Made by a program: the position numbers and the translations under genes
Part shown: positions 6,372 through 24,572 of the stretch, one piece after another
How positions within the stretch are numbered: the stretch's first letter is position 1
Layout of the letters: each line of letters starts with the position of its first letter
From: Candidatus Poribacteria bacterium
Lineage (GTDB): Bacteria > Poribacteria > WGA-4E > WGA-3G
Assembly (NCBI GenBank): GCA_965205025.1
Contig: CBDBFU010000012.1
Coordinates: 128,001 to 192,000, forward strand
Direction of reading: 5' to 3'
DNA length: 64,000 nucleotides
The notes under the pieces: model-generated
Told to the model about the DNA's origin: nothing
Databases searched by the model: none
What the model saw: only the letters and a program-made list of their open reading frames with translations

Positions 6372-7652
6372 ATGGCAAAGTCACCAAACATTGTTTTTAT
6401 TCTTGCTGACGATCACGGTTATGGTGATATCTCAGCACATAATGGACCCTCAATTCAAACACCACATATTGATAGGATCGCAGAAGACGGTATACGACTT
6501 ACCCAATTCTATGCAAACTCCTCTGTCTGTTCACCAAGTCGTGCATCGCTCATGACGGGTCGCTATCCGGATAGAGTTGGTGTTCCAGGTGTTATACGCA
6601 CACATCCAGAAAACAATTGGGGATATTTTCGACAGGATGCTATCACACTCCCATCTATATTAAAAGAGAAAGATTACAAGACATCCCTAATTGGTAAGTG
6701 GCATCTCGGACTTGAAGATGAAAATCACCCATGTAAAAGAGGATTTGATTATTTTCACGGCTTTCTCGGTGATATGATGGATGACTATTACACGCATCTT
6801 CGCCATCAGAATAACTATATGCGTCGTGATTTTGAAACAATTGACCCAAGAGGACACGCTACCGATCTATTCTCGGATTGGAGTGTTGAGTTTATCCAAG
6901 AACAATCACAATCCACACAACCCTTCTTTCTATATCTTGCTTATAATGCACCGCACACCCCGATCCAACCACCGAATGATTGGGTTGATAGAGTGAAGGA
7001 TCGTGAACCAGATATTTCAGAACAACGGGCAAAATATATAGCACTTGTTGAGCACATGGATGCTGGTATTGGACGGGTTCTTGATTCACTTGAAAAAACC
7101 AATCAACTCTCCAATACTCTTGTCATATATACTTCTGACAACGGAGGTCAAATGGGGGTTGGGGCACATAACGGTCCACTTCGAGGTCAGAAGGGTGAAA
7201 TGTATGAAGGCGGTATACGTGTACCTACCTGTGTCATGTGGGAAGGACATATTCCTGAAGGTTATGTATCAAATCAAGTGGGTATGATAATGGATTTTTA
7301 TCCTACACTCTGTGAAATTACGGGTATACCTATAAACCATGAAATTGAGGGACAGTCAATTTTGAAAACATTGCAAGGCGAAAAACAGGATTTATCCGAA
7401 CGTCTACTCTACTGGATACGAAGAGAGGGAGGACAACAGTTCTTAGGAGATTGCCAACATGCTGTTAGACAGGGGGACATAAAACTGCTACATAACAGAC
7501 CTTTTGAATCCCTTGAACTTTATGACTTATCAAACGATCCGATGGAAGCTACCGATACTGCCAAAACGAATACTGATCTTTTTAAAGAGATGGGGAATCT
7601 TTTCCAGCAAGAGACACAGAAATCAGGGGGCATTCCTTGGCAAAAAGCATAA
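6372..7652 (+). CDS. Arylsulfatase-family (Cys-type) sulfatase
   Basis: PNIVFILADDHG, CSPSRASLMTGRY, GKWHLG, SDNGG. Confidence 0.93.
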   Translation: MAKSPNIVFILADDHGYGDISAHNGPSIQTPHIDRIAEDGIRLTQFYANSSVCSPSRASLMTGRYPDRVGVPGVIRTHPENNWGYFRQDAITLPSILKEKDYKTSLIGKWHLGLEDENHPCKRGFDYFHGFLGDMMDDYYTHLRHQNNYMRRDFETIDPRGHATDLFSDWSVEFIQEQSQSTQPFFLYLAYNAPHTPIQPPNDWVDRVKDREPDISEQRAKYIALVEHMDAGIGRVLDSLEKTNQLSNTLVIYTSDNGGQMGVGAHNGPLRGQKGEMYEGGIRVPTCVMWEGHIPEGYVSNQVGMIMDFYPTLCEITGIPINHEIEGQSILKTLQGEKQDLSERLLYWIRREGGQQFLGDCQHAVRQGDIKLLHNRPFESLELYDLSNDPMEATDTAKTNTDLFKEMGNLFQQETQKSGGIPWQKA

Positions 7653-7845
7653 TTAATTTCTCAATTTAAAGGTTTTAAATGTGAGCCTATTTCAAATATT
7701 TATTCTCGTTCCAGGTTAAATGAGGTAGAATAAAAAGGATGCATCTCTCATCAGAAATCTATCCTTAGAAATTACTATCTTTTGGATATAAAATGACTCT
7801 TTAATGGTGGTGTATACAATGTATACATTCGTTATTTCGTTAACA

Positions 7846-7874
7846 TTGACATGCCGTAAAATCCGTTGTATAAT
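7846..7874 (+). promoter_or_regulatory. Sigma70-type promoter of the grpE/hsp70/J-adaptor locus
   Basis: TTGACA (7846-7851), 17 bp spacer, TATAAT (7869-7874). Confidence 0.75.
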
Positions 7875-7938
7875 CAAACAAAAACAACTTGAATGTATAA
7901 TAGTCATTCCTACATCATAGGTATGAGAGAATTCAGTT

Positions 7939-8655
7939 TTGAGCAGTGAAATGAATAACGATCTTGATGCAAAATTAAAAAAAATCTTGGATAGTGAAAC
8001 AAACTTAGATACGGATAAACCTGATGACACAGTAGATACTGTTGGAGATACCCCAATGGAGGACATGGAATTACATCAGATAAATACACTTACTGAGATT
8101 AACCAGTCTTTGACGGTATTACTCGAATTATTTGAAAAACACATATCTGGAAATCAGAATCAAGTCCAGATGTTTGATAAAATGTATGCCGAAATGAAGG
8201 ACTATAAAGAGAGTTTTCTACTTGAAGTACTTCATAAACCGGTTATCCATAACTTAATTCAACTCTACGATAGTTTTGTATCACTTGAATCTCAGCTTAC
8301 TAACCTTATTGATGAGAATAATGATAACACACTATTAAATGAGTTGGGGCAATATAGTAGTAATTTACAGAATTTTCGTTTTGAACTTGAAGAAGTTTTA
8401 TACCGCATGGATGTAACACCCTATAAGGATTCACCAGATACATTGGATAGGCAGTTACACAAGACACGGAAAGTCATATCTACTGACGATCCAAATTTGG
8501 ATCAGAAAGTAGCAGAAGTGCATAAAATTGGATTCTATTGGCGTGAGAAAGTATTTCGTCCGGAAGATGTAACCATTTATCGTTATACGGCCTCCACAGA
8601 AAAATCTGAACATCGTAATACTAAACATTCTTCAGATCAGCAAAGGGGAGATTAA
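7939..8655 (+). CDS. GrpE-like nucleotide exchange factor
   Basis: Coiled-coil N-half. C-terminal LDRQLHK...VAEVHKIGFYWREKVFRPEDVTI resembles GrpE FDP..H...V.EV.Q.GY....RVLRPA.V; abuts the Hsp70 gene. Confidence 0.85.
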   Translation: MSSEMNNDLDAKLKKILDSETNLDTDKPDDTVDTVGDTPMEDMELHQINTLTEINQSLTVLLELFEKHISGNQNQVQMFDKMYAEMKDYKESFLLEVLHKPVIHNLIQLYDSFVSLESQLTNLIDENNDNTLLNELGQYSSNLQNFRFELEEVLYRMDVTPYKDSPDTLDRQLHKTRKVISTDDPNLDQKVAEVHKIGFYWREKVFRPEDVTIYRYTASTEKSEHRNTKHSSDQQRGD

Positions 8656-10251
8656 ATGGGTAAAGTTGTCGGAATAGATTTAGGTACGACATTTTCTGTG
8701 ATAGCACATATAAATGAGCATGGACAACCTGAAATTATCCCCAATTTGGAAAGTGACCGAATCACACCATCGGTCGTAATGTTTGAAGACAATCTTGTAA
8801 CTGTTGGGAAAATAGCTAAGCAGAATGCCAGAGCTGTTCCTGAACAGATTGTTGAGTTTATCAAAAGGGAGATGGGTAAATCAAGAACGAATTTCTTCCG
8901 TACATTCGATGAAAAAGACTATTCCCCTGAAGAACTATCTGCGCTCATTTTGACGAAACTGAAACAGGATGCAGAAATCTATCTGAATGAAGAGGTAACT
9001 GATGCTGTAATCACTGTACCCGCGTATTTTCACGACGCAGAAAGGGAAGCCACCCGAAATGCAGGTAAAATTGCAGGTTTTAATGTGCTTCAAGTCTTGA
9101 ACGAACCGACCGCAGCTGCACTCGCTTATGGAATCGATCAACTGGGTAATAACCAAAATGTATTTGTATTCGACCTTGGTGGTGGTACATTTGATGTGAC
9201 AATTATGCAGGTCTCAGAAGCTGAAATACAAATGTTAGCAACAAATGGTGACCATAGGTTAGGAGGTAAAGATTGGGACGACAAAATCATTACTTATGTT
9301 GCTGAGATGTTTGAGATAGAACATGGAGAGAATCCTCTGGATGATCTACATACATATCAAGACCTTCAACTGGATGCAATTGGAGCCAAAGAATCCTTAT
9401 CTCAACGACAAAGAGCATTAATTGTATGTGGATATAATGGGAAAACAACTCGTGTCGAATTAATGCGCGAGAAATTTGAAGAACTTACGGCAGATCTACT
9501 TGAGAGATGTCGAACTTTGTGTGAATTAGTATTATCAGAGGCAGAAATGGCTTGGACTGATATTGATAAGATTTTATTGGTTGGCGGGTCGACACGGATG
9601 CCTATGGTACAAGAAATGATACGGACAATTAGCGATAAAGAGATTAATCCACATGAAGTTAATCCTGATGAAGTCGTCGCATTAGGCGCGGCTATCCAAG
9701 GAACTCTACGTCAAATCACTGATGATACTGTTGAAACACCGGAAATGCCTGAAGCTGTTATTGAACGGTTTATTGGACCGGATGGTGTGCCAAAAGTCAC
9801 TGTAACTGACGGTGCTACACATAATCTCGGTCTTGTTGTCCTCAATTCACAACGCGATTATATTATCCATGTTATGATACCAAAAATGACTGCTGTACCG
9901 TGTGAAATTGCTGATCAATTCTTGACTGTAGATGAGAACCAACCAACTGTACTAATTGAGGTGGTGCAAGGACTTGAACAGGATCAGATTAAAAACCAAA
10001 TCCCATTTTTTGATGAATATAAGTTGGGAGAATGCACGCTTGAGTTACCTAACGGATTGCCACAAGGATCTCCAATTGAGGTAAATTATAAATATAATTT
10101 AGACCAAAATCTTGAGGTAACAGCAAAATCATTGACAGATGACGGTCCTACTGCAGTTTTTGATATCTTTTCAATAATTGATAGACCAACACTTAATGAA
10201 GAAGAAGTTTCCCAAGCACAAACAGATCTGCAAGAACTTACAGTTGAATAA
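8656..10251 (+). CDS. Atypical Hsp70/DnaK-family chaperone (no C-terminal lid)
   Basis: GIDLGTT, TVPAYF, EPTAAA, DLGGGTFD, LVGGSTRMP motifs; only 531 aa. Confidence 0.93.
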   Translation: MGKVVGIDLGTTFSVIAHINEHGQPEIIPNLESDRITPSVVMFEDNLVTVGKIAKQNARAVPEQIVEFIKREMGKSRTNFFRTFDEKDYSPEELSALILTKLKQDAEIYLNEEVTDAVITVPAYFHDAEREATRNAGKIAGFNVLQVLNEPTAAALAYGIDQLGNNQNVFVFDLGGGTFDVTIMQVSEAEIQMLATNGDHRLGGKDWDDKIITYVAEMFEIEHGENPLDDLHTYQDLQLDAIGAKESLSQRQRALIVCGYNGKTTRVELMREKFEELTADLLERCRTLCELVLSEAEMAWTDIDKILLVGGSTRMPMVQEMIRTISDKEINPHEVNPDEVVALGAAIQGTLRQITDDTVETPEMPEAVIERFIGPDGVPKVTVTDGATHNLGLVVLNSQRDYIIHVMIPKMTAVPCEIADQFLTVDENQPTVLIEVVQGLEQDQIKNQIPFFDEYKLGECTLELPNGLPQGSPIEVNYKYNLDQNLEVTAKSLTDDGPTAVFDIFSIIDRPTLNEEEVSQAQTDLQELTVE

Positions 10252-10327
10252 ATTCCTTCACCAAATTACATTTTCTTAGATAATATCATTAGTATATCTT
10301 ACCTTAGTTAACCACAGGAAATTACGA

Positions 10328-11704
10328 ATGTCTGATCGAGATGAATTTATAGCCTTTGTAACAGATTTTAAAGTTGTCTCACTTACTATTTCGGACGAAC
10401 AACGTAAAGGTCTTTTACGTAGAGCAGTACATCAACACGGTCTTACTGTAGAAGAAGCATACAGAATATTAGATAAATCGGGACTTGTAATTGGAGAACA
10501 ACAGGTAGATTTTTTTCAAGTATTAGGTATACCCTTTGAAGAGATTAAAACTAAAACCGAATCGGAGATTACAGGATGTGTTGAGTCAACCCACAAGAGA
10601 CTATATAGAGAATCCCTGAATTCGGGTGGTCGTCCACGGCCAGATGGTAGGTCAGAAGAACAGTGGCGAAGATTATTAAATCAAGCACGTGATGTCCTTA
10701 TTGATCCCATTAAGAGGCAAGGACATATTGATGAACTAAATACTTATGATGATGAAGAGTTTAATGAGGATATATCAATTAAGCCAACCACTTCTATAAG
10801 CAATTCATCATTTAATGTTGAGGAAAGGGTTATACCAGCACACAAAAAACTTGTATATTCTGTTGTATTTTCACCTGATGGCACATGTGTTGCCAGTGGG
10901 AGTGCTGACAAATCAATATGTATCTGGGATATTCAGGCTGAAAAGCAGAAACATATTCTTAACGGTCATCATGATACAGTAACATCTGTTAGGTATTCCC
11001 CAGACGGTAAAACCATAGCAAGCGGGAGTTTTGACGGAACAGTATGTTTATGGAATGCTAAATCTGGAGAGTTGAAAAAACGTTTAACAGAACAAAAAGA
11101 TAAAATTAGTTCCCTTGCTTATTCACCTGATGGAAAAACAATTGCAAGTGGGAGTTATAATGGAACTATTCAATTATACAATGCTGAGACAGGAGAACCT
11201 AAAATCCTCCTCAAAGGACATAAGAATTGGGTTAGTTCAGTTGTGTATTCACCTGATGGAAAAACAGTTGCATGTGCAAGTTATGATGGGAATGTATATT
11301 TATGGAATACTGAATCAGGCGTAAATATGCATGTCCTAACAGGTCATAAATTTAGTGTTATCGCAGTAACTTATTCACCTAATTCTGATACAATCATTAG
11401 TATTGATCTACAAGGAACAATTCTGGCATGGAATGCTATTTCTGGAAAACAAAAGAAACTCTCAACGGGGTTCATGTCCTGGGTTAGTTCAGTAGTTTAT
11501 TCCCCAGATGCAACGAATCTAACATGTGGTAGTTTTCATGGATCAATCACTTTATGGAATACAGATACATGGGAGGAAGTAAGAACTATTACAGGGCATA
11601 CCTCAACTGTAAAAGCACTATCCTACTCTCCAGATGGAAGGATTCTGGCAAGCTGCGGTGGAGACGGTAATGTACGAATTTGGAGTTCATCATTATACGA
11701 ATAA
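10328..11704 (+). CDS. Helical N-domain + divergent J-domain + WD40 beta-propeller
   Basis: DFFQVLGI...GGRPRPDGRSEEQWRRLLNQARDVLIDPIKR; about seven SPDG/WD repeats. Confidence 0.85.
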   Translation: MSDRDEFIAFVTDFKVVSLTISDEQRKGLLRRAVHQHGLTVEEAYRILDKSGLVIGEQQVDFFQVLGIPFEEIKTKTESEITGCVESTHKRLYRESLNSGGRPRPDGRSEEQWRRLLNQARDVLIDPIKRQGHIDELNTYDDEEFNEDISIKPTTSISNSSFNVEERVIPAHKKLVYSVVFSPDGTCVASGSADKSICIWDIQAEKQKHILNGHHDTVTSVRYSPDGKTIASGSFDGTVCLWNAKSGELKKRLTEQKDKISSLAYSPDGKTIASGSYNGTIQLYNAETGEPKILLKGHKNWVSSVVYSPDGKTVACASYDGNVYLWNTESGVNMHVLTGHKFSVIAVTYSPNSDTIISIDLQGTILAWNAISGKQKKLSTGFMSWVSSVVYSPDATNLTCGSFHGSITLWNTDTWEEVRTITGHTSTVKALSYSPDGRILASCGGDGNVRIWSSSLYE

Positions 11705-11788
11705 TACCTATTCAAGCTGCCGATCATTAATGACAGAATACTACAACTGAATTATTCTTGTTCATAGAATTTCTAATAGGTTTAATTA

Positions 11789-13030
11789 ATGTCCCAACGC
11801 GATGAATTCTTTGCATTTATTAATACTCTCAAAGATGCATCACCTACGATTACTGATGAACAACGAAAAGGCTTTCTCAGACTTGCAGTTGAAAAATATG
11901 GTTTAACTGTTGATGAAGCAACATCTATATTTAATGCATCGGGTATAATAATTGGGGAAATAGTTGATCTACTTGAAATCTTTGGATTAACTATCACAGA
12001 GATTAAGAGATATAATCAATCTGAAATTGTCGATCGCGTTGAGTCAATCCACAGTAAACTATATAGTGAATCTTTAAAGTCCGGTGGTCGTCCGCGTCCA
12101 GATGGTAGGTCAGAAGAACAGTGGCGAAGATTATTAAATCAAGCACGAGACACACTAACTGACTCAAAGAAACGGCACGAATATCTTACCACACTCCAAA
12201 TTAAAGAACCCTCCTTTGATATAGCATCAGGAAGCACAAGTCTTGAGGATATGTCACTTATTCATAAAGGTGAATTTGAAATGGGTAGCAATGATGACGA
12301 GGCTTTTGATGATGAACATCCGGTTCATACCGTTTTTCTTGACGAATTCTATATTGACCAATATCCTGTAACCAATGCACAATACAAGGCATTCCTTGAT
12401 GCAAGACCACAGTGGAGTAGACATGAAATTCCAAAAGAGTATTGTGATGTTGACTATCTAAAGCATTGGCGTTGGGATAGTTTTCCGAAAGGAGAAGCAG
12501 ATTATCCTGTTGTCAATGTAAGTTGGTATGCTGCTATGGCTTATGCTCAATGGAGAGGCAAACGTCTTCCAACTGAAGCTGAATGGGAAAAAGCTGCACG
12601 AGGTGATCTAATTGGCAATAAATATCCATACGGTAATTCAGTAGATCCCACTCAAGCGAATTATGACTGGAATGAGGGAAATACCACACCCGTTGGCAAA
12701 TATCCTTCAAATGGATATGAACTCTATGACATGTGCGGTAATGTTTGGGAATGGTGCCTTGATAAATATGAGAAATATTATTATAGAAACTCACCGACTC
12801 GTAACCCTATTGCTGGTGAAGATACTATTCACCAGTTGAATAGCAACTACTTAGAGATTGAATCTAACCGAGTATTACGGGGTGGTTCATGGCGTATACC
12901 TGCCTTATTAGTAAGAACAGCAAAACGTAATGCTGAATCACCATGGTTTTCACTGAATGTAATTGGATTTCGATGTGTATATCAGGTCTTACTTAAGGAT
13001 ATGTCTCCTTTACCTCCTTCCGTTATATGA
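11789..13030 (+). CDS. Divergent J-domain + FGE-sulfatase (SUMF1/CLec-fold) domain protein
   Basis: RPD J-like motif; GEFEMG, PVTN, RLPTEAEWEKAARG, DMCGNVWEW, RGGSW, GFRC. Confidence 0.88.
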   Translation: MSQRDEFFAFINTLKDASPTITDEQRKGFLRLAVEKYGLTVDEATSIFNASGIIIGEIVDLLEIFGLTITEIKRYNQSEIVDRVESIHSKLYSESLKSGGRPRPDGRSEEQWRRLLNQARDTLTDSKKRHEYLTTLQIKEPSFDIASGSTSLEDMSLIHKGEFEMGSNDDEAFDDEHPVHTVFLDEFYIDQYPVTNAQYKAFLDARPQWSRHEIPKEYCDVDYLKHWRWDSFPKGEADYPVVNVSWYAAMAYAQWRGKRLPTEAEWEKAARGDLIGNKYPYGNSVDPTQANYDWNEGNTTPVGKYPSNGYELYDMCGNVWEWCLDKYEKYYYRNSPTRNPIAGEDTIHQLNSNYLEIESNRVLRGGSWRIPALLVRTAKRNAESPWFSLNVIGFRCVYQVLLKDMSPLPPSVI

Positions 13031-13061
13031 ACTATCTTAACTTCTATATCAAAATTAGACT

Positions 13062-14447
13062 ATGCTAAAACGTAATGAGTATATAGACTTTATTAATCAA
13101 TTTAGAACTGTATCTCCAACTATCACAGATGAACAAAGGATTGGTCTTCTGCGACGAGGTGTTCAACAACATGGTCTATCAATTTCTGAGGCAGAGAAAA
13201 TAATTCTATCATCAGGATTAATTATCGGTGAACAGATAAATTATTTCGATATATTCGGTTTATCCATAGAAGATTTACAGAATAAAAACGAGGAGTTAAT
13301 TACAGCAGAAGTTGATACGATACACAGAAATCTATATAACGCTTCCTTAAAAGCAGGAGGTCGTATACGATCAGATGGCAGGACAGAAGAACAGTGGCGG
13401 ATCATATTAAATGAAGCACGCGATACTCTCAAGAATGTTGAAAAACGAAAATCTCATATTGAAATGCTACAATCCGATGTTCTACCTCCGATTGAAATCC
13501 TATTTGAAGATTCTCCTCTACAAGAAACTGACACAACACAAGAAACAATTCAAACACAACCAACCGAACAGTCAAGTGTGTTGCCATCTGTAAAAGTACT
13601 TCCTGAAGATGAATCTATACAAGAAACTGACACCCTTGAAGAATCTAATTTAACACAACCCGTAATAGAAGATGGTATGGCACTCATTCCTGCCGGAGAA
13701 TTTCAAATGGGGAGTGATGACATTGAGGCATACAATGACGAAAAACCTGTACATACTGTATACATAGATACATTCTTTATTGATCAATATCCTGTCACGA
13801 ATGTAGAATATCAAGAGTTTATTGATACCAATCCTGAATGGCGTAAACCCAAAAAGTGGTATGATAATACTGAAATTATTGCCGGTATTCACAAGAAATA
13901 TCATGACGGTGATTACCTAAAGACTTGGAAAAGAAACAATTTTCCAAAAAATGAAGATCATCATCCTGTAACTTGGGTGAGTTGGTATGCAGCCATGGCT
14001 TACGCACAGTGGAAAGGTAAAAGACTACCAACGGAAGCTGAATGGGAAAAAGCTGCACGAGGTGGTTTGACAGGACAGAAATATCCATGGGGAAATACCA
14101 TAAGCCTCAATCATCTAAATTACGATCTATATATCAGTAATACTACAGAAGTAGGTCAATACCCTGAAAATGGTTATGGTATTTATGATATGGCGGGGAA
14201 CGTATTTGAATGGTGCATAGATTTATGGGATGAAAACTTCTATACTAATTCTCCATACAATAATCCTGTCGCTGATGGATATTTAGCAGATATATTAGCT
14301 GATTTCACAAGCGCAATTACACCGAGAGTTGTGCGGGGTGGATCTTCTGTAAGTACTCCGAGAAACACACGTGTTTCATATCGACATAGAAATACTCCTA
14401 AACTGACATGTTTTAGTATTGGATTCCGTTGTGTAAGATCTAAATAA
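13062..14447 (+). CDS. Divergent J-domain + FGE-sulfatase domain protein
   Basis: RSD J-like motif, acidic linker, FGE-fold motifs. Confidence 0.88.
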   Translation: MLKRNEYIDFINQFRTVSPTITDEQRIGLLRRGVQQHGLSISEAEKIILSSGLIIGEQINYFDIFGLSIEDLQNKNEELITAEVDTIHRNLYNASLKAGGRIRSDGRTEEQWRIILNEARDTLKNVEKRKSHIEMLQSDVLPPIEILFEDSPLQETDTTQETIQTQPTEQSSVLPSVKVLPEDESIQETDTLEESNLTQPVIEDGMALIPAGEFQMGSDDIEAYNDEKPVHTVYIDTFFIDQYPVTNVEYQEFIDTNPEWRKPKKWYDNTEIIAGIHKKYHDGDYLKTWKRNNFPKNEDHHPVTWVSWYAAMAYAQWKGKRLPTEAEWEKAARGGLTGQKYPWGNTISLNHLNYDLYISNTTEVGQYPENGYGIYDMAGNVFEWCIDLWDENFYTNSPYNNPVADGYLADILADFTSAITPRVVRGGSSVSTPRNTRVSYRHRNTPKLTCFSIGFRCVRSK

Positions 14448-14500
14448 ACTACATTTTTATCAAATTTTTACTAATTTTTCATATATAAATTATTCTATCT

Positions 14501-15721
14501 ATGGCTGAAAGCAAAGAATTCATAGCATTTGTTAATAGATTAAAGACACTGTCACCGACCATAACCGAAGAGCAGCGTATTGGTCTTCTACGTCAAGGTA
14601 TGCAGGAATATAACCTCACCTCAGATGAAGCGGAAAATATTCTGAAAACATCAGGATTAATTGTTGGTGAACAAGATAATTATTTTGATGTCTTAGGAAT
14701 CTCAATTGAAGAATTTGAAGAACTTAGTGAAGCAGATATTATTGCGTATGTAGAATCCATCCACGACAAACTTTACAGAGCATCTTTGAATGCAGGAGGT
14801 CGGCCAAGGTCTGATGGTAGGACAGAAGAAGAGTGGCGGACACTACTAAATCAAGCACGAGATACATTAATAGATCCTGATATACGACGATTACACAATT
14901 CAACATTACAACAAACAGAAAATTCCTTAGATGATGGAATAACACATCTAAGTTCTGAAAATATGGTGTTAATCCCTGAAGGAGAATTTCAGATGGGATG
15001 TGATGATTATCAATCTGATAAGAGTGAGAAACCTGTCCATACTGTTTATGTTGATGCATTCTATATAGACTCTTTTCCGGTAACGAATCTACAGTACAAA
15101 TTATTTCTGGATGCGAACCCTCAGTGGAAATCTCCTAAAATAATTGATATTTATAGGATGCGAAAATATCGAGATACAGACTATTTGATGACTTGGGATA
15201 GGAACAAAGTTCCAACAGGAAAGGAAGAACATCCTGTAACTTGGGTGAGTTGGTATGCAGCTATGGCTTATGCTCAATGGTTAGGTAAAAGATTGCCAAC
15301 AGAAGCAGAATGGGAAAAAGCAGCACGTGGTGGCTTAGAAGAGAAAAAATATCCATGGGGTAATTCGATTGATGATTCCTATGCAAATTTTGGTATAAAC
15401 ATCGGTGAGACAACCCCAATTGGTAATTATCCTGCTAACAATTATGAAGTATACGATATGGTAGGGAATGTATCTGAATGGTGTTTAGATAAGTGGGATG
15501 AAAAATTCTATAGTTATTCACCACATATTAACCCAATTGCAGGTGGAAGTACTGAAAGGATTATAGAGACACATTCAAAATTAAGAGAGGAACGTGTAAT
15601 CAGAGGGGGTTCATGGCATACTGACCTTGAAGACCTACGAATATCCTACAGAACAGGATTAGCACCTTCAAAAACAGAAAGTTTTATAGGATTTCGTTGT
15701 GTGAAACCTATTAACCAGTAA
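14501..15721 (+). CDS. Divergent J-domain + FGE-sulfatase domain protein
   Basis: RSD J-like motif; FGE-fold motifs. Confidence 0.88.
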   Translation: MAESKEFIAFVNRLKTLSPTITEEQRIGLLRQGMQEYNLTSDEAENILKTSGLIVGEQDNYFDVLGISIEEFEELSEADIIAYVESIHDKLYRASLNAGGRPRSDGRTEEEWRTLLNQARDTLIDPDIRRLHNSTLQQTENSLDDGITHLSSENMVLIPEGEFQMGCDDYQSDKSEKPVHTVYVDAFYIDSFPVTNLQYKLFLDANPQWKSPKIIDIYRMRKYRDTDYLMTWDRNKVPTGKEEHPVTWVSWYAAMAYAQWLGKRLPTEAEWEKAARGGLEEKKYPWGNSIDDSYANFGINIGETTPIGNYPANNYEVYDMVGNVSEWCLDKWDEKFYSYSPHINPIAGGSTERIIETHSKLREERVIRGGSWHTDLEDLRISYRTGLAPSKTESFIGFRCVKPINQ

Positions 15722-15763
15722 ACCAATTATTTCTCTTGTTAAAGACCTAATTGAGGATCAAGA

Positions 15764-17053
15764 ATGCGTGAATATGAAGAATTTATCTCTGTTATCAATA
15801 CACTCAAAGTACTATCACCAATAATAACTGAAGCGCAACGTATTGGTCTTCTGCGACAAGGTGTGCAGGAATATGGTCTCACTACAGATGAAGCGGAAAA
15901 TATTCTGAAAACATCAGGATTAATTGTTGGTGAACAAGATAATTATTTTGATGTTTTAGGAATCTCAATTGAAGAACTGGAAAATCTCAGTGAAGCAGAT
16001 GTCGACGCACATGTTGAATCTGTCCACGACAAACTTTACCGAACATCTTTGAATGCAGGAGGTCGTCCGCGGTCTGATGGTAGAACAGAAGTAGAGTGGC
16101 GAAACCTTTTAAATCAAGCAAAAGATACAATAACAGATCCCTTAAAAAGAAGTGAATATATTTACATTCTACAACAGGATAGAATAAAGGATATACCTAC
16201 TGAAACATCACAGGAATTGGAATCATCTGAGGCAAACACAATACCTCATGCATTAAGTAGTACATTTATACAGGATGGTATTGAGGTGCCTGATGATATG
16301 GTATATATACCAGCAGGAGAATTCCAAATGGGGAGTGAACATGCAGATGCAGAGGAGGATGAACAACCTATTCACACAGTTTTTGTTAATGCATTTCTTA
16401 TGGATAAATATCCTGTGACAAATAGGAAATTTAGAGAATTTCTGAATACTAATCCTGAGTGGCGGAAACCTGATGATATAATTAATCATATAAGATGGAA
16501 TTATCATGACGGTTCATATTTGAAGGATTGGCAGATGAATATGTATCCACCTGGGAAAGGTGATCATCCAGTGACACAGGTGAGTTGGTATGCTGCGATG
16601 GCGTATGCAGAATCTGTAGGTAAGCGTTTACCGACTGAAGCGGAATGGGAAAGAGCAGCACGCGGTGGCTTGGATGGTAAACACTATTCATGGGGTAATG
16701 TTGAAGATTTTGCTAATGCAGATGAGTATTTAAATGCTGAAGATAATTTGCCAATCGGCCTTACACCTGCCAATAATTATGGACTTTATGACATGTGTGG
16801 CAATGTATGGGAATGGTGTCTTGATGCATATAATGAGGATTTCTATAATGATACACCACAGAATAACCCATTTTATGGACCTAACAGCATAGAATGGGTA
16901 ATAGAACATTTTAGACGTATAACAATCGAACGTGTATTACGCGGAGGTCCTTGGGGTTTTGAAACTATAGGTGCACGAGTATCACAACGACTCAAAAGTG
17001 CCCCAACCGATACTTTACCTACTTACAGTTTTCGTTGTATAAAATATATTTGA
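15764..17053 (+). CDS. Divergent J-domain + FGE-sulfatase domain protein
   Basis: RSD J-like motif; FGE-fold motifs (ends YSFRC). Confidence 0.88.
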   Translation: MREYEEFISVINTLKVLSPIITEAQRIGLLRQGVQEYGLTTDEAENILKTSGLIVGEQDNYFDVLGISIEELENLSEADVDAHVESVHDKLYRTSLNAGGRPRSDGRTEVEWRNLLNQAKDTITDPLKRSEYIYILQQDRIKDIPTETSQELESSEANTIPHALSSTFIQDGIEVPDDMVYIPAGEFQMGSEHADAEEDEQPIHTVFVNAFLMDKYPVTNRKFREFLNTNPEWRKPDDIINHIRWNYHDGSYLKDWQMNMYPPGKGDHPVTQVSWYAAMAYAESVGKRLPTEAEWERAARGGLDGKHYSWGNVEDFANADEYLNAEDNLPIGLTPANNYGLYDMCGNVWEWCLDAYNEDFYNDTPQNNPFYGPNSIEWVIEHFRRITIERVLRGGPWGFETIGARVSQRLKSAPTDTLPTYSFRCIKYI

Positions 17054-17117
17054 TAGGTATGGTCTTTTTGATAGAATAATTTCATAGAATATTGAAATAT
17101 AAATAGACTTACTAAAC

Positions 17118-18407
17118 ATGGCAAAACGTGAAGAGTTCATTCAGCTTATCAACACTTTTAAAACGGTGTCAGACACAATAACAGACAATCAAAGACGTGG
17201 TCTGTTGCAACAGGCTGTACAGATCTACGATCTCTCTATTGAAGAAGGTATAGAGATATTGGATTCATTAGGAATAGTTGTCGGCGATGAGATAAATTAT
17301 TTTGAGATATTAGGACTATCCCTTGAGGACATACAAGACAAGGATGACCACTCGGTTACTGATATTGTTAAAATAGCACATGATGACTTGTATAAAGTCT
17401 CCTTAACTGCTGGAGGACGGGTCAGATCAGATGGAAGGACTGAAGAACAGTGGCGAATACTACTGAACCAAGCGCGGAATATTCTGGGTGATAAAGAAAA
17501 AAGAAACGAATACATATCAACCCTTCTTCAAGAAGAATCTGAAGAATTTACAACTCCGAATACACCTACTATTCCGGGTACCGAACCTAATTCTATACAG
17601 ACGAGTGAAATTGTATCTGAACTGACCTCTCATATAATAATAGATCCTGACGATATTGAAATCCCGACTGAAATGGTATTGATCCCTTCAGGAGAATTTA
17701 TGATGGGATCTCATAGTGAAGAAATAAATGGTAGTGATTTATCATTACATAGTGTGTATGTAAATGGATACCTAATTGATAAATATCCTGTAACTAATTC
17801 TGAATTCCGTATTTTTCTCACAGAGAACGAACAATGGCAGAAAAACAACATACCCAATGAATTTCACAATGGTAAATACCTTAGTTCTTGGAACGGGAAT
17901 ATCTATCCAAGAAATAAAGACAATGATCCGGTTGTCGACGTAAGTTGGTATGCTGCCATGGCTTATGCTCAATGGATAGAGAAACGACTTCCAACAGATA
18001 TTGAATGGGAAAAAGCTGCACGTGGAGGGTTAACTGAAAAAACGTATCCCTGGGGTGATGATATTACTAACGACCTGGCGAATTACGGAATGATTGTTGG
18101 GAATACAACCCCTGTTGGCACCTATCCTCCAAATGAGTATGGTGCGTATGATATGGTTGGCAATGTGTGGGAATGGTGCCTTAATCATTATGAACATATT
18201 GAAGCATTTAGTAAACCAAGTATATCTGTTGAACAGATTGGTGATATCTTAGATTCCTACTTAGAAGTCGAAAGCAATCGTGTGTTACGTGGAGGGTCTT
18301 GGGCAAGTAGTGAACGAGCTCTTAATGTTGCATATAGAGGTAGTGCTGCCCCTGATTATACATATTACAGCTACGGGTTTCGATGTGTTAAGGATATTCA
18401 TGGGTAA
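17118..18407 (+). CDS. Divergent J-domain + FGE-sulfatase domain protein
   Basis: NYFEILGLS...RSD...LNQARNILGDKEKRNEY; FGE-fold motifs. Confidence 0.88.
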   Translation: MAKREEFIQLINTFKTVSDTITDNQRRGLLQQAVQIYDLSIEEGIEILDSLGIVVGDEINYFEILGLSLEDIQDKDDHSVTDIVKIAHDDLYKVSLTAGGRVRSDGRTEEQWRILLNQARNILGDKEKRNEYISTLLQEESEEFTTPNTPTIPGTEPNSIQTSEIVSELTSHIIIDPDDIEIPTEMVLIPSGEFMMGSHSEEINGSDLSLHSVYVNGYLIDKYPVTNSEFRIFLTENEQWQKNNIPNEFHNGKYLSSWNGNIYPRNKDNDPVVDVSWYAAMAYAQWIEKRLPTDIEWEKAARGGLTEKTYPWGDDITNDLANYGMIVGNTTPVGTYPPNEYGAYDMVGNVWEWCLNHYEHIEAFSKPSISVEQIGDILDSYLEVESNRVLRGGSWASSERALNVAYRGSAAPDYTYYSYGFRCVKDIHG

Positions 18408-18467
18408 AATATCTTCAACTCTAATGTACATCTAATTTTCAGAGTTCATCTTTTTGGAACTGTATTA

Positions 18468-19845
18468 ATGGCAAAACGAGAAGAATTTATAGATGCAATC
18501 AATTTGTTTAGATCTGCCTCACAGTCCATTTCGGTAGAACAACGGATAGGACTTTTACAACAAGCTGTACAAGAGTATGGACTATCAATAGAAGAAGCAG
18601 AGGGGATAATCAAAGAAACAGGATTAAATGTCGGTGGTGCTATTAATTACTTTAGAGTCTTAGGTTTGTCAAATCACGAATTTGAAAATCTGAACGAAAC
18701 CACTATTACATCAATTATAGATGACGCACATAAACAACATTATACAGAATCATTAAGGGCAGGTGGCCTTCCTCGTCCTGATGGGAGAACCCAAGAACAG
18801 TGGAGAAATATCTTAAATCACGCACGCGATACTTTAATTGATCCACATAAACGCGAAGAATATCTATCACAATTATTGAGTGAAGAAGATTCATCTGATA
18901 GTCTCATTAATGATGTGTCCAACAATAATACCACTGATACGGAAATCTATAATCAGAATCATAACCAGACAGTCTCAATTGATAATAAAGCACAATTAAA
19001 TACATGCACCTTCGATTGTAAAAAATAAAAAAGTATTTACCCATCATGAATCACCTGCAAATATGGTACAAATCCCTGCTGGTGACTTCAGAATGGGTAG
19101 TAATAATGAAAAAGTTAGTAATAGAGAAAAACCTGCACATGTCGTGTATATTGACGAGTTTTTTATAGACACTAATTTAGTTACCAATGCAGAATATAAA
19201 GAGTTTGTAGATGCCAATCCACAATGGACAAAACCAACAAAATGGTTTCACTTAGAGAAAAAGATGAAATCTTATATACCTGAGAAATACCATGATGGTG
19301 ATTATCTAAAACATTGGAATGAGAATACATATCCTGATGAGAAAGCAGAACATCCTGTGACATGGGTGAGCTGGTATGCCGCAATGGCGTATGCTGAATG
19401 GGTGGCTAAACGTCTCCCAACAGAGGCAGAATGGGAAAAAGCTGCACGCGGTGGAATAACTGGACAGAATTATCCTTGGGGAGAATCAATTGATTATACT
19501 AAGGCTAATTATAATAGCTATATTGGTGAAACAACTTCTGTCGGTCAGTATCCTGCAAACGGATATGGAATTCATGATATGATAGGAAATGTCTGGGAAT
19601 GGTGTCTTGACGAGTATCAGGAAAATTACTATGCAAGTTCAGAACGCAAGAACCCAATTTGTGGTCCAAATACGGTTGAATCAATAGAATATAGTGATAT
19701 AGATAATAGACATGCACGGGTAATGCGAGGAGGTTCTTGGCTGGATGCCTCTCAATTCGTCCGTTCTGCATCCCGTTACAGGAACACACCTACACGTACA
19801 CTCGCAAGAATTGGGTTTCGTTGTGTCAAGTCTGCAACATCATAA
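18468..19845 (+). pseudogene. Divergent J-domain + FGE-sulfatase gene split by one frameshift (possibly a sequencing error)
   Basis: 18468-19028 carries the J-like part and 19063-19845 the FGE part. The second frame is open back to ~19003 (HAPSIVKNKKVFTHHESPANM). Confidence 0.8.
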
Positions 19846-19907
19846 TCCCGATAACTTCTTCATTGCAAATTTAGTTACACCTACATGTTTAATTACTGGT
19901 GGTACGT

Positions 19908-21299
19908 ATGTCAAATCGTGATGAGTTTATTGCTGTCGTAAATACACTCAAAACACTCTCTAATACAATTACAGATGAACAGAATAGAAGTCTATTACAG
20001 CAGGCAGTCCACGATCATGGTCTCTCAGTAGAAGACGCCTTGGAGATAATCGATTCATTAGGGATAATTGTTGGGGAAAAGATAAACTACTTAGAGATCT
20101 TAGGGTTTTCTATTGAAGATTTAAGTTCACAAGATGAATCTAACATTACTAAAATGCTTGAAATTGCCCATAAAAAATACTACTCTGAATCATTACAGTC
20201 GGGTGGGTTACCACGACAGGATGGGAGAACTCAAGAACAGTGGCGTACAATTCTAAATCAAGCCTATGATACATTGAAAGATCCAATAAAACGCAAGGAA
20301 CATATTGAAACCGTACAAACTGAGTCATCTCATGAGGAGAACACATCAACTATAGTAACCGAAATATCTGAACCTAAAGATACCTCATTACAAGTTGCAG
20401 TTCCAGAAGAAATGGTCTTAATTCCATCTGGGGATTTTCAGATGGGTAATAGTAATGAAAATGCAAATATACGCGAAACACCGGTACATATTGTCAATAC
20501 TGATGCATTTTATATTGACAAATATCCAATAACAAATGAACAATATAAAGCGTTTATAGATGCAAACCCATTATGGCGGAAACCATCTGAAGGATTGTGG
20601 TTATATCTTCAAAAATGGTATGAAAAAGGGAACGTTCGATTTCGATATAACTACATATATGATAAATATCATGATGGAGTGTATCTGAGACATTGGAGAC
20701 ATAATAGGTTCCCTCTTGAAACAGCTAATCATCCTGTTACCCATGTAAGTTGGTATGCTGCAATGGCGTATGCACAATGGGTTGGCAAACGTCTGCCAAC
20801 AGAAGCAGAATGGGAGAAAGCTGCACGGGGAGGGATAAATGGTCAGAAATATCCTTGGGGTGATTTAATGAATTCCAACATGGCAAATTGTAATGAGGAT
20901 GCAGATAAAACCACACCTATAGGAAAGTATCCTGCAAATAATTTCGGTGTTTTTGATATGGTTGGAAATATATGGGAGTGGTGCATTGATGAATATGTAA
21001 TGGATTTTTATACATCCTCTACATCTCTGAATCCTATCGCAGGCGTGGACTCAAAGGAGGACTTGGACAATTTCATTCTCAATTTTAGAGACGTAGATAG
21101 TGATCGTGTTTTGCGAGGTGGTACATCCTTTATTTCATCTGAACCTATCCATACTGCCGCACGTTGGGGTGGAACACCTATTCTTACTGAACATATTGCT
21201 TCCTATTCAACTAAGTATTTAGATACATTTTCAAGGCCAATCGCAGCAAACATTGGCTTCAGATGTGTATGGGATACAAACGTAAAAACGAATTCTTAA
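19908..21299 (+). CDS. Divergent J-domain + FGE-sulfatase domain protein
   Basis: RQD motif, LNQAYDTLKDPIKR; FGE-fold with insertions. Start MSNRDEF chosen by paralog alignment. Confidence 0.88.
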   Translation: MSNRDEFIAVVNTLKTLSNTITDEQNRSLLQQAVHDHGLSVEDALEIIDSLGIIVGEKINYLEILGFSIEDLSSQDESNITKMLEIAHKKYYSESLQSGGLPRQDGRTQEQWRTILNQAYDTLKDPIKRKEHIETVQTESSHEENTSTIVTEISEPKDTSLQVAVPEEMVLIPSGDFQMGNSNENANIRETPVHIVNTDAFYIDKYPITNEQYKAFIDANPLWRKPSEGLWLYLQKWYEKGNVRFRYNYIYDKYHDGVYLRHWRHNRFPLETANHPVTHVSWYAAMAYAQWVGKRLPTEAEWEKAARGGINGQKYPWGDLMNSNMANCNEDADKTTPIGKYPANNFGVFDMVGNIWEWCIDEYVMDFYTSSTSLNPIAGVDSKEDLDNFILNFRDVDSDRVLRGGTSFISSEPIHTAARWGGTPILTEHIASYSTKYLDTFSRPIAANIGFRCVWDTNVKTNS

Positions 21300-21326
21300 T
21301 TCTTGTTAAATCTAATTTATTAAACA

Positions 21327-23663
21327 ATGAATTCATATCCAAAAGAGAGATTGATTATGAAAAACAAAAATAGTTACATATTATGGTATAACAAACCAGC
21401 ACAAGAGTGGACAGATGCCCTACCCGTTGGGAATGGACGACTTGGGGCAATGGTGTTTGGGGGAGTAGAACAGGAACGGATCCAACTTAATGAAGAGAGT
21501 CTTTGGGAAGGATGTTTTCAGGATACAAATAATCCTAAGGCACTGCAAGCACTTCCAATTGTCCAACAATTGTTGTTTGAAGACAAAAATGATGAAGCCA
21601 CAACACTTGCTGGTGAAACGATGCTGGGTGTTCCACATCGGATAAAATCTTATCAGTCTTTAGGCGATATTATTATTGATTTTACTAATCATAGTGAAAT
21701 TACAGAATATCACCGGGAACTGGATTTAGATACAGGTATAGCAAAGACAACCTATCAAGTCGGTAATGATAATATCAATAGAGAAGTCTTCGCAACTGCT
21801 GTCGATGATATCATCGTTATCCGTATAGAATCCGATTCAGCCAATGCTGTTAGTTTTGATGTTACAATGACACGAGAACAGGATGCCTCGGTTGCATGCA
21901 TATCTGACAAAATCCTTAGACTTGATGGAGAATGTAGTGATGGTGGTCTACGTTTTTCTGCATATCTGAAGGCAAATGTTGATGATGGAAAAATAGAATC
22001 GAATGAAGATAAAATTTCTATTCGTTCTGCAAGTAGTGTAACATTGCTACTGTCTGGTGCAACGAGTTATATTAATCAGAAAGATGCAACGGGTAATCCA
22101 CATGAATTGTGTGAAGGTCATCTGTCATCAGTAGAAAACAAATCTTATGACAAATTACGTTCTGACCACATACAGGAACATCAATCTCTATTTCAAAGAG
22201 TAGACATAAACCTCGGTTCAAGCGATGCGGATAATCTACCTACAGATGAACGTCTAACAAAGGTAAAGGAAGGTGACTCTGACCCAGGGCTTGTTTCACT
22301 ATATTTTCAGTTTGGACGTTATCTTTTAATGGGGAGTTCAAGACCCGGATGTCTCCCAGCCAACCTGCAGGGGGTTTGGAACCATCACATGAAAGCCCCA
22401 TGGAACAGCGATTACCACACCAATATTAATCTACAAATGAATTACTGGGTTCCAGAAGTATGCAATCTCGCTGAATGTCATAAGCCGTTATTTGATTATA
22501 TGGATACACTCGTTGAACCTGGAAGTGAGACAGCAAAACGCCATTATGGTGCAGGGGGTTGGGTAGTTCATCACTTATCTGATATATGGGGATTTACAAC
22601 ACCAGCGGATGGTATTTGGGGGATATCACCTGTAGGTGCTGCATGGTTGAGCGAACATGTATGGGAACATTACCTGTTCGGTGGTGATGAGAAATTTCTT
22701 AGAGAACAAGGTTATCCACTCATGAAAGGTGCCGCACGTTTTATGCTTGATTTTCTAATTGAAGCACCAGAAGGTACACCTTTCGCTGGAAAACTTGTAA
22801 CGAATCCATCCCATTCACCTGAAAACAGTTTTCAAAAAGCTGATGGTACACGTTCACTATTCACTTATGCCGCAACAATTGACCTTGAGATTATACATGA
22901 ACTCTTCACAAATTGCATAGACTGTCTTGATGTACTCGGTATTGACGCGGATTTCCGAGAAGAATTAGTTTCATCTCTGGATCGGTTGGCACCACTACAG
23001 ATTAGTGAAAAAACAGGTAGACTGCAGGAGTGGATATATGACTATGATGAACCGGAACCAGGACATAGACATATGTCACATATGTATGGTCTACATCCAA
23101 GTTGTCAAATAACACTACGTGGCACTCCTGAGTTGGCAGAGGCAGCACGAAAATCTTTGGAATATCGATTGCAACATGGTGGCGGACAAACAGGATGGAG
23201 TCGGGCATGGTTGGTAAATTTCTTAGCACGACTTGAAGACGCAGAAGAAGCGTATAACCATTTACATGCACTCCTTGCAAGGTGTACCTTAACAAACCTG
23301 TTTGATACCCATCCACCATTCCAGATTGACGGAAACTTTGGGGGAACAGCAGGAATTGCTGAGATGCTTATACAAAGTCATGACGGAGAGATTAACCTAC
23401 TCCCCGCACTGCCAAAAGAATGGAATACCGGTTATGTTAAAGGGTTGCGTGCACGCAGTGGGTTTGAAGTGGATATGGAATGGGAAAATGGTACTCTTAC
23501 TAAGTCGATAATTTCTTCTCAACTTGGTAGGGAATGTACTGTTAGAACAACGGAAACTGTTTCGGTGTCGTGTGATAATGAAAAAATTGAATCAATTCAA
23601 TCTAATTCAGTGACAACATTCAGTACAGAGATTGGAAAAACCTACATAATATCTACTACATAG
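21327..23663 (+). CDS. Glycoside hydrolase family 95 (alpha-1,2-L-fucosidase-like)
   Basis: [50 protein letters not shown]. Confidence 0.93.
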
Positions 23664-23702
23664 TGTTCAAACAAATACATCGGGAGCCTATCCTATTAAA
23701 AG

Positions 23703-23741
23703 CAATAGACTCTATCAATGGAACATTGACGGAGTCTATTG
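23703..23741. terminator. Hairpin between convergent genes
   Basis: CAATAGACTC..TCAATG-gaa-CATTGA..GAGTCTATTG. Confidence 0.55.
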
Positions 23742-23780
23742 ATAATTCCAAGATTTATTTAGAAAATATTGTGATGACAA

Positions 23781-24572
23781 CTATTTTGTTTTTAAATTCC
23801 CCCAAGTTGTTGTCAACTTGCCACCTGCTTCAACAGCAGTAATCGCAGAAATTCCATCTTCCATCACAGATTTTACTTCATCATGAGTTAACCCACGTTT
23901 CCATACTTGCATGTCATCCATGAGTCCAGCAAAAGGACGGTTATTATCGATATTATAACCTACACGTGCCCCTTGACCCCAATCACCTGCGATAGGATCT
24001 GGCAATCGCGCTTTTTCCTCACCTACTTTTTCCCCATTAATATATAGATAAGCCATAGCTTCTTCACGACTAAATGTACCAGCGTAATGCACCCACTCTT
24101 TTGGCGTATTTTTACCTGCACGGATATCAAATAATGTTTTACCTGGATTATGTCCCCGATTGAGCCAGCGGAAATTACCACCTCCACGTGCTTCTGGATG
24201 TACTACCCAGGTACCATCTGTTGCACGTGCGTTGAAGAGTGCCATATCTGTAACTGCATCAACATTAATCCACGCGACAATACTCATACCTTGTGTCGGT
24301 ATATGGGCTGGATCAACGTTAGGACCATCCATATCAAGATAACTCCCCGATACAAAATGTCCAGCTTTACCAAATTTACCCGCATTCGCTTGGGTCACAT
24401 CTCCATTGATTGTCCCATCATAACCATGACCGGATTTATCAATAACTTTATTTCCAGAAAATTCTTCAAAATCAAAATAAAAAACTAAATCTTCATCTAA
24501 CACTTTTGCAGACAAACTGCTAATATGGGATGCAAACATCAAACATAGAACTACCAGTATGAAACGTTTCAT
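23781..24572 (-). CDS. Secreted LamG/concanavalin-A-like jellyroll protein with C-terminal GKLTTTWG motif
   Basis: Signal peptide; DKSGHGYDG, WVHYAGTF, LYINGE, FAGLMDD. Confidence 0.85.
   Translation of the reverse strand: MKRFILVVLCLMFASHISSLSAKVLDEDLVFYFDFEEFSGNKVIDKSGHGYDGTINGDVTQANAGKFGKAGHFVSGSYLDMDGPNVDPAHIPTQGMSIVAWINVDAVTDMALFNARATDGTWVVHPEARGGGNFRWLNRGHNPGKTLFDIRAGKNTPKEWVHYAGTFSREEAMAYLYINGEKVGEEKARLPDPIAGDWGQGARVGYNIDNNRPFAGLMDDMQVWKRGLTHDEVKSVMEDGISAITAVEAGGKLTTTWGNLKTK

Follow-up and report, generated by a model that had tools for sequence, protein, structure and literature searches.

In chaperone biology, the His-Pro-Asp (HPD) tripeptide is treated as a defining and indispensable feature of the J-domain. 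According to the available text of its report, a large census of J-proteins dropped sequences without the full motif before analysis, and the J-type proteins DjlB and DjlC carry HPE in its place (Malinverni, 2023). The specialised short Hsp70s of the HscC and HscA type are described, in the accessible part of a review, as bearing a deletion in lobe I of the nucleotide-binding domain (NBD), and neither HscA nor HscC is believed to rely on GrpE (Mayer, 2021). In the GAP1-N2-type GTPase conflict systems, an HSP70-GrpE theme occurs with a partner of DnaJ type that is joined to a binding module, and the available portion of the same paper presents FGS domains, which adopt the FGE (formylglycine-generating enzyme) fold, as effector or sensor domains of MoxR-vWA ternary systems, where they are non-enzymatic binders and always C-terminal (Kaur, Burroughs, Iyer, & Aravind, eLife, 2020). 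Here we examine a 64,000-nucleotide stretch of DNA from Candidatus Poribacteria bacterium (hereafter the window; GenBank assembly GCA_965205025.1, contig CBDBFU010000012.1, positions 128,001 to 192,000 of the forward strand), in which an operon at 7939–21299 on the plus strand encodes a GrpE-like factor, an Hsp70 paralog without a helical lid and eight paralogous adaptors, each joining a J-like N-terminal module to a C-terminal head. It is probable, in our judgment, that these genes constitute a self-contained second Hsp70 system with its own panel of adaptors, insulated from the housekeeping DnaK, DnaJ and GrpE.

The operon comprises eleven open reading frames (ORFs), all on the same strand and separated by intergenic gaps of 0–84 nt; Pfam and the ORF list together assign them to the GrpE-like factor, the lid-less Hsp70 and the eight adaptors, one of which is split over two ORFs. 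A preliminary description of this DNA, made from the letters alone, had counted ten co-oriented genes with short gaps behind a single consensus promoter; the orientation, the gaps and the promoter stand, and the split adaptor raises the number of ORFs to eleven. The promoter-like sequence, TTGACA-17 nt-TATAAT at 7846–7874 (+), lies 65 nt upstream of the first ORF and is the sole 12/12 consensus match within 7500–24000. Promoter-like sites overall are not above shuffled sequence in that region (58 against a shuffle mean of 64).

The first ORF (7939–8655, +; TTG start at 7939, ATG at 7951) encodes a GrpE-like nucleotide-exchange factor of 238 aa, which matches Pfam GrpE (PF01025) over residues 47–213 with E 2.2e-8 and 34.4 bits (gathering cut-off 25.8), far more weakly than the genome's canonical GrpE (149.5 bits), and has zero NCBIfam matches. 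It is directly abutted by the Hsp70 paralog (8656–10251, +; 531 aa), whose match to PF00012 covers profile positions 1–514 of 599 at E 2.7e-121. Aligned to the genome's own DnaK, the paralog keeps the GIDLGTT, DLGGGTFD, NEPTAA and LVGGSTRMP motifs and has both the actin-fold ATPase domain and the beta-sandwich substrate-binding domain (SBD), and it ends ~110 residues short, without the alpha-helical lid (SBD-alpha). The interdomain linker, preceded by a ~25-residue insert, reads VTVTD where the genome's DnaK has ILLLD and so lacks the usual hydrophobic character. At the position four residues ahead of NEPTAA's catalytic Glu, a Gln (Q146) takes the place of a DnaK Arg, and it is conserved in at least 90% of 20 Hsp70 paralog sequences; we take the replaced residue to be R167 of E. 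coli DnaK, which pairs with the HPD Asp in structure 5NRO. Judged from these motifs, the protein is likely to be ATPase-competent despite the missing lid. Elsewhere, the genome encodes a canonical DnaK (891 bits), the canonical GrpE next to a DnaJ and on the same contig as the operon, and a second Pfam-DnaJ gene; a whole-genome search with PF00226 found these two canonical DnaJ genes and nothing else. Because the usual DnaK and GrpE and a pair of DnaJ genes are thus located elsewhere, the set in the operon is private, as had been supposed at the outset.

The adaptors follow on the same strand, their modules and heads being assigned from Pfam and from alignment of the N-termini. Adaptor 1 (10328–11704) joins a three-helix and J-like module of ~137 aa to a WD40 propeller; adaptors 2 (11789–13030), 4 (14501–15721), 5 (15764–17053) and 6 (17118–18407) combine the module with a non-catalytic FGE-fold head, and adaptor 4 served as the reference for the structure, complex and entropy work. 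In adaptor 3 (13062–14447), a long acidic and Thr-Gln-rich linker separates the module from its FGE-fold head. Adaptor 8 (19899–21299, starting with GTG at 19899 or ATG at 19908) has a divergent, longer C-terminal end, and its FGE-sulfatase match spans profile positions 3–195 of 255. Adaptor 7 is broken: its first piece (18468–19028) holds the J-like module and linker, is without a Pfam family and stops in an A-rich run, and the second (19063–19845) holds the FGE-fold head in the +1 frame, which is open from 19000 and overlaps the first frame at 19000–19028 within that run. Since the two pieces are halves of one paralog, we count eight paralogs, one of them split. The frame change recurs with identical letters and no indel in contigs from two public runs of one study, one of which may be the source of the DNA itself, and this agreement is weak counter-evidence to an assembly error.

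The eight N-termini, which the preliminary description had given as a common stretch of ~135 aa, can be aligned over ~137 residues at 41–76% identity, with 27 invariant columns, and within the genome the J-like module occurs in these 8 genes only. An AlphaFold2 model built from the alignment of these 8 rows alone (mean predicted local distance difference test, pLDDT, 83) predicts a three-helix subdomain (residues 1–56) followed by a helical domain (58–137), and the latter has, in the model, a four-helix J fold with its helix II-loop-helix III hairpin. J-domains are the top Foldseek matches (probability up to 1.00, target-normalised TM-score up to 0.74), and VIA-align places residues 58–137 of the model on J-domains and HscB with Z scores of 8.6 to 7. 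Sequence profiles point the same way: residues 107–158 of adaptor 8 weakly match HscB (TIGR00714, E 2.5e-5, below the cut-off), a profile of the module searched against the PDB finds HscB first (E 0.37), and among 1.84 billion representative proteins the same profile pulls in the Pfam-DnaJ proteins P0110 (E 3.4e-10) and P0122 (E 3.6e-6). In the HscB alignment, the HPD position corresponds to Y92-x-x of the module, whose longer loop is invariant as Y..SL..GG..R.DGR....WR..LN.A. No other stretch of the protein varies as little as this loop (residues 91–120; entropy 0.6–0.95 bits) across 141 family members. The adaptors had also been described as free of signal peptides, and this agrees with reading of the sequences and with the modelling of the N-terminus as a folded helical domain, no signal-peptide predictor having been run.

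Modelling of the N-module together with the Hsp70, a step suggested in the preliminary description, passed its controls. With the Hsp70 (20-row alignment), ATP and the module of adaptor 4 (8 rows) as inputs, the three runs scored 0.61, 0.65 and 0.03, with a median of 0.61, and the best of 3 controls scored 0.21. Of solved complexes, 58 of 80 attain this score mark, as do 2 of 110 mismatched pairs, counts that apply only roughly here, given that our own alignments were used and the ligand was included. Contact agreement between the runs is 24% or more, and the partner pLDDT does not fall below 74. On the adaptor side the predicted interface consists of residues 93, 96–102, 104, 108 and 110, all within the invariant loop and in the family's least variable stretch; on the Hsp70 side it consists of residues 62–68, 80–83, 201–213 and 226–238. 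From the DnaK subdomain limits and from the alignment, these presumably belong to lobes IB and IIB, on the side that binds exchange factors and not at the canonical J site, which involves the NBD, the linker and SBD-beta. Among the 20 Hsp70 residues in contact, 11 do not vary within the paralog clade but are unlike those of the genome's own DnaK, against a background of 46 of 350 NBD positions, an enrichment (hypergeometric P ~4e-6) that is not independent of the model.

At E <= 0.001, the module profile retrieves just 132 of the 1.84 billion representatives, a few of them GC-richer (P0080, P0099, P0109, P0112, P0125). Of 176 Poribacteria genomes, 60 have the module; inside the window's family the figure is 58 of 111, and beyond that family 1 of 64. 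A search for the Hsp70 paralog, with E <= 1e-150 as the limit that keeps DnaK out, gives 58 of the 111 family genomes. The two lists are identical (both partners in 58 genomes, one only in 0, neither in 53), a count to be read with the fact that related genomes are not independent, although the pair is patchy inside both large genera, the cassette occurring in 33 of 39 genomes of the window's genus and 22 of 65 of the sister genus. Co-occurrence of the N-terminus with this special Hsp70 across genomes had been named as a check, and the same 58 genomes hold both. Among the loci of the form found here, which we call type 1, the Hsp70 lies directly upstream of the array in 28 of 37, and 4 of the remaining nine run off the locus start. 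The GrpE-like gene accompanies 16 of the 28 Hsp70-bearing loci, so that its inclusion in the system, as first described, holds for the window and not universally. In one locus, a 301-aa ORF that is ankyrin-like by eye (L034:4415–5320) stands upstream of the Hsp70 in place of the GrpE-like gene. Outside Poribacteria, scanning of metagenomes by means of the J-only alignment gave no relatives, a plasmid tblastn search matched the ankyrin part only, and the J-like part of P0080, used as the query of a word-indexed search, returned P0080 itself only.

What varies from one adaptor to the next is the head. Pfam identifies WD40 in one paralog and FGE-sulfatase (PF03781, E 1e-58 to 1e-63) in seven, in agreement with the different C-terminal modules first reported. 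The closest solved relatives of the FGE heads are formylglycine-generating enzymes (E 1e-32), and the catalytic cysteine pair of these enzymes (C-x4-C after an RGGS motif) is present in none of the seven heads; alignment with 6muj and 2q17 shows the segment that should carry it replaced and shorter by 3 residues. The missing pair rules out active FGE or sulfatase maturation enzymes and leads us to regard the seven heads as binding modules rather than enzymes. Over the 141 members, the heads combine a rigid core with discrete variable loops (reference residues 211–220, 291–300, 331–360 and 371–390), the last of which is the former catalytic-cysteine segment. Variation of the heads by a diversity-generating retroelement was considered and rejected, for the genome (95.5% complete) gives zero matches to the reverse transcriptase family PF00078. 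In a census of the relatives, restricted to the 71 matches of at least 250 aa out of the 132 in all, the heads are FGE in 20, ankyrin in 11, WD40 in 2 and HEAT in 2, and 4 are ordinary DnaJ proteins; TPR and PEGA/PG-binding heads are also found. The whole genome holds 22 FGE-like ORFs, none with the catalytic cysteine pair by motif search. Most of those outside the operon begin with signal-peptide-like or lipoprotein-like N-termini.

Taken as a working mechanism, these features would fit together as follows. The C-terminal head, a non-catalytic FGE/C-type-lectin fold or WD40 here and ankyrin, HEAT or TPR repeats in relatives, would bind a specific target; the adaptor would dock on the NBD of the Hsp70 through the invariant loop Y-x-x-S-L-x-x-G-G-x-x-R-x-D-G-R...W-R, which in this J-domain-derived module would stand in for HPD. 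The lid-less Hsp70, served by all eight cytoplasmic adaptors and reset by its own GrpE-like factor, might then hold, unfold or sequester the catch of the head, or might instead switch the adaptor itself. In silico, none of the three outcomes that the preliminary description had set against itself was found: the N-terminus is predicted to adopt a J fold, its homologs within the family occur in the same genomes as the Hsp70, and an interaction is predicted.

Several observations weigh against this mechanism. HPD is absent from all 8 paralogs, and none of the eight N-termini matches Pfam DnaJ (PF00226) at E <= 0.01; with the motif missing and the Pfam model blind to the module, canonical stimulation of the ATPase is doubtful, and for the same two reasons we speak of a J-like module, with a J-domain as its probable origin, and stop short of classing it among the J-domains. 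Of the original assignment, therefore, the fold stands as modelled by AlphaFold2 and matched by Foldseek and VIA-align, and the motif and the family match do not. The Foldseek E-values of the J-domain matches are themselves weak (0.1–1), and Z scores around 8 in VIA-align also fit common helical arrangements. One of the three complex runs failed (0.03); the surface on which the module is predicted to dock is non-canonical for a J-domain; and since solved J-domain/Hsp70 complexes exist, part of the success of the model may be memory, an explanation against which the non-canonical site itself counts somewhat. The GrpE-like gene is missing from 12 of the 28 Hsp70-bearing type-1 loci even when sought with a profile of 20 GrpE-like sequences. 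On the other side stands the matching loss that the alignments show in the two partners, where HPD has become Y-x-x in the module and the Arg that would meet it has become Q146 in the Hsp70.

A second source of clues is a sister version of the cassette, which we call type 2; the window's genome has type 1 only. In type-2 proteins the J-like domain stands alone at the N-terminus, carries the motif G-A-Y-A-N-V-P-R-x-D-G and is followed either by ankyrin repeats or by a long region of no assigned family and then an FGE head. In the latter, ~1040 aa long, a middle of ~700 residues (residues 85–780 of L075:9582–12710) has no Pfam family or usable ESM Atlas match. In 5 of 6 loci, type-2 arrays adjoin a GrpE-like gene and a lid-less Hsp70 gene of their own, the other locus stopping at a contig end, and a gene that fuses a caspase (Peptidase_C14), PEGA and FGE lies directly upstream of the type-2 GrpE in 3 of 3 loci examined (for example L075:5299–7128). 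One locus adds an Hsp70-vWA fusion (L073:6141–8222) and a CARDB-caspase protein (L073:2780–5686); all of these upstream genes are in other Poribacteria. The caspase and vWA neighbours of the sister version are hints of a conflict or surveillance role.

What might such a system recognise? If the mechanism holds, the role that we favour is the recognition of foreign proteins, from phages or other invaders, by a germline-encoded panel of receptors, for which we would allow a little less than an even chance; a role in client-specific proteostasis, or in assembling proteins of the cell itself, is somewhat unlikely, a sulfatase-related and a host-directed role are each improbable, and some other role takes the remainder. 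Toward surveillance point the sensor-type heads, the C-terminal placement of the FGS fold, the fact that the cassette is dispensable and fluctuates in copy number, and the caspase- and vWA-linked sister. Taken as a whole, the scheme in which antibody-like heads catch cytoplasmic invader proteins, the private Hsp70, reached through a rebuilt J-like/NBD interface that dispenses with HPD, unfolds or sequesters them and the sister version signals to a caspase-like protease is a tentative proposal that we hold to be rather unlikely as it stands.

The locus itself speaks to this question in both directions. Across two genera the cassette lies between the same sulfatase and the same GH95 gene (sulfatase upstream in 23, GH95 downstream in 21 of the 37 loci), and in cassette-less genomes of the genus these two flanking genes lie next to each other, with 77 and 229 nt between them in the 2 of 2 examined. 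The empty sites between the same flanks show the cassette to be a dispensable unit of insertion or deletion at a fixed site, not a mobile island; alignment of the empty site to the window revealed no clear junction repeats at the borders. Within the genus, arrays range from 3 to 13 copies, truncated or split ones included. Each paralog of the window has orthologs at 72–91% identity in other species, and pairwise ratios of nonsynonymous to synonymous substitution (0.17–0.35 in module and head alike, 0.04–0.05 in the Hsp70) indicate purifying selection; no reliable positive selection was detected, the few windows with ratios >1 being noisy, drawn from 1–3 orthologs each and not counted as evidence.

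Much of this runs counter to a defence role. The cassette sits between a sulfatase and GH95, which is not a defence island, its paralogs are conserved and under constraint, and the operon encodes no effector gene; Pfam scans of the ORFs found no GAP1 GTPase, MoxR, tubulin or effector-associated domain in or beside it. No relatives were found in viral contigs. A search of six proteins against PADLOC-DB 2.0 (2023 library) gave only weak and partial matches, PDC-M61B for the Hsp70 (E 9e-4, 16 bits) and a HEAT-ARM model for the WD40 head. A role in defence or surveillance, as put forward in the preliminary description, is thus a conjecture still, with the fixed site between metabolic genes, the purifying selection and the missing effector all standing in its way.

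The rival that survives best takes these same facts at face value and makes the set a housekeeping specialist, with adaptors that hand particular endogenous proteins or complexes over to a dedicated Hsp70, to be folded, assembled or taken apart, and play no part in conflict; we rate it as unlikely. HscB, which serves IscU with HscA, offers an analogy. This rival accords with the fixed chromosomal position, with paralogs that form an old orthologous series, with purifying selection throughout, and with a site outside any defence island and an operon devoid of effectors, and dedicated single-task Hsp70/J pairs are established, as the accessible part of the review describes (HscA/HscB, HscC/DjlB/DjlC; Mayer, 2021). 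A housekeeping task sits poorly, however, with a cassette that is patchy and dispensable (33 of 39 genomes in one genus, 22 of 65 in the other, with clean empty sites), with copy numbers of 3–13, some copies broken, with head types that swap, and with a sister version linked to caspase and vWA genes.

The natural ligand of the FGE fold is an unfolded sulfatase motif, and the operon lies directly downstream of a sulfatase (6372–7652) of the Cys type (CSPSR), which has no evident signal peptide because its Pfam domain begins at residue 5. A second rival accordingly holds that the dead FGE heads bind CxPxR motifs of unfolded sulfatases and pass them to the private Hsp70, to be kept unfolded for the radical-SAM maturase or for export. 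In its favour, the genome has 43 sulfatase-like ORFs, 32 with CxPxR, one radical-SAM sulfatase maturase (anSME, 524 bits) and, as noted, no Cys-pair FGE among 22. Yet the position of the FGE heads is also filled by heads of WD40, ankyrin, HEAT and TPR type, the cassette-less genomes keep the flanking sulfatase (2 of 2 examined, of six in the genus), and a rough first look at sulfatase candidates counts 46–60 in 5 of the 6 cassette-less genomes, like their kin, and 29 in the sixth. We consider this explanation quite improbable. Weakest, and in our estimate very improbable, is the idea that the proteins are 'eukaryote-like' and host-directed, with the N-module as a tag by which the private Hsp70 keeps WD40, ankyrin and FGE effectors export-competent for sponge cells: Poribacteria are sponge symbionts, to judge from the titles of related records, ankyrin and WD40 repeats occur among the heads, and the pairing of a conserved N-terminal module and C-termini that vary is reminiscent of polymorphic effector families, but sequence reading discloses no signal peptides, Pfam scans and ORF reading found no secretion genes in or beside the cassette, and the most conserved part of the N-module is the very loop predicted to dock on Hsp70.

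Around the operon, the flanking genes of the cassette are the sulfatase, a UxuA-like gene, GH95 and LamG. Farther along the window, two neighbouring large WD40-propeller proteins (58302–61238 and 61250–63418; 978 and 722 aa) lack the J-like module. A 922-aa ORF at 49750–52518 (−) joins region 2/4 of an extracytoplasmic function (ECF)-type sigma-70 to a long C-terminal part with Sortilin/BNR-like matches, and a DDE transposase gene (PF01609) lies at 53634–55025.

Literature searches, which did not cover the bacterial J-protein census of Barriot et al. (2020) and its supplements, found no description of this architecture. The earlier statement that no such system had been described is borne out to that extent and is qualified by related Hsp70-GrpE-DnaJ themes in the available text of Kaur et al. 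(2020). For chaperone biology, the matter of interest is that an HPD-less, J-derived module is conserved and co-occurs without exception with an Hsp70 paralog whose own J-reading residues have changed. A working pair would amount to an orthogonal Hsp70/co-chaperone circuit found in nature, and would put to the test how J-signalling can be rewired. For immunity, the head repertoire and the caspase- and vWA-linked sister relate the cassette to predicted conflict systems, with an Hsp70 in the place usually taken by a STAND or MoxR NTPase, and should the reading as innate recognition be true, a chaperone would here be used as an immune effector. In ecological terms, this is a lineage-specific and dispensable module of a single family of uncultivated sponge symbionts, in which it takes up as many as 13 genes of a genome.

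How far, then, does the locus resemble what is already described? With the canonical DnaK-DnaJ-GrpE triad and its class C J-proteins it shares an intact ATPase domain and beta-sandwich, a GrpE-family factor and a J-fold module joined to a targeting domain. It differs in that its modules have no HPD and no Pfam DnaJ match, its Hsp70 has no helical lid, a Gln for the Arg before NEPTAA and a VTVTD linker, docking is modelled on another surface, and the partners come in tandem arrays of 3–13 in a genome where a normal triad coexists. Like the HscC-DjlB/DjlC and HscA-HscB pairs, as portrayed in the accessible part of the review (Mayer, 2021), it places a specialised short Hsp70 beside its own J-type partners, insulated from DnaK. 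Unlike HscA and HscC, the set encodes its own GrpE; Y-x-x replaces HPD here where DjlB and DjlC have HPE, and those pairs are without arrays and without FGE or WD40 heads.

The systems of Kaur et al. (2020), within the portion of that work available, are alike in having an additional HSP70 that comes with a GrpE of its own and a partner of DnaJ type bearing a binding module, in the C-terminal position of FGS, and in neighbourhoods shared with caspase, vWA and superstructure-forming repeats, as in our type-2 relatives. That text mentions neither Poribacteria nor sponges, and no GAP1-N2 GTPase occurs among the scanned ORFs by this operon. There, the partner is FNIII or TPR joined to DnaJ; here, it is an HPD-less module joined to FGS or WD40. 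And where the diversity of FGS in those systems is reported to come from reverse-transcriptase elements, in the poribacterial cassette it comes as an array of paralogs.

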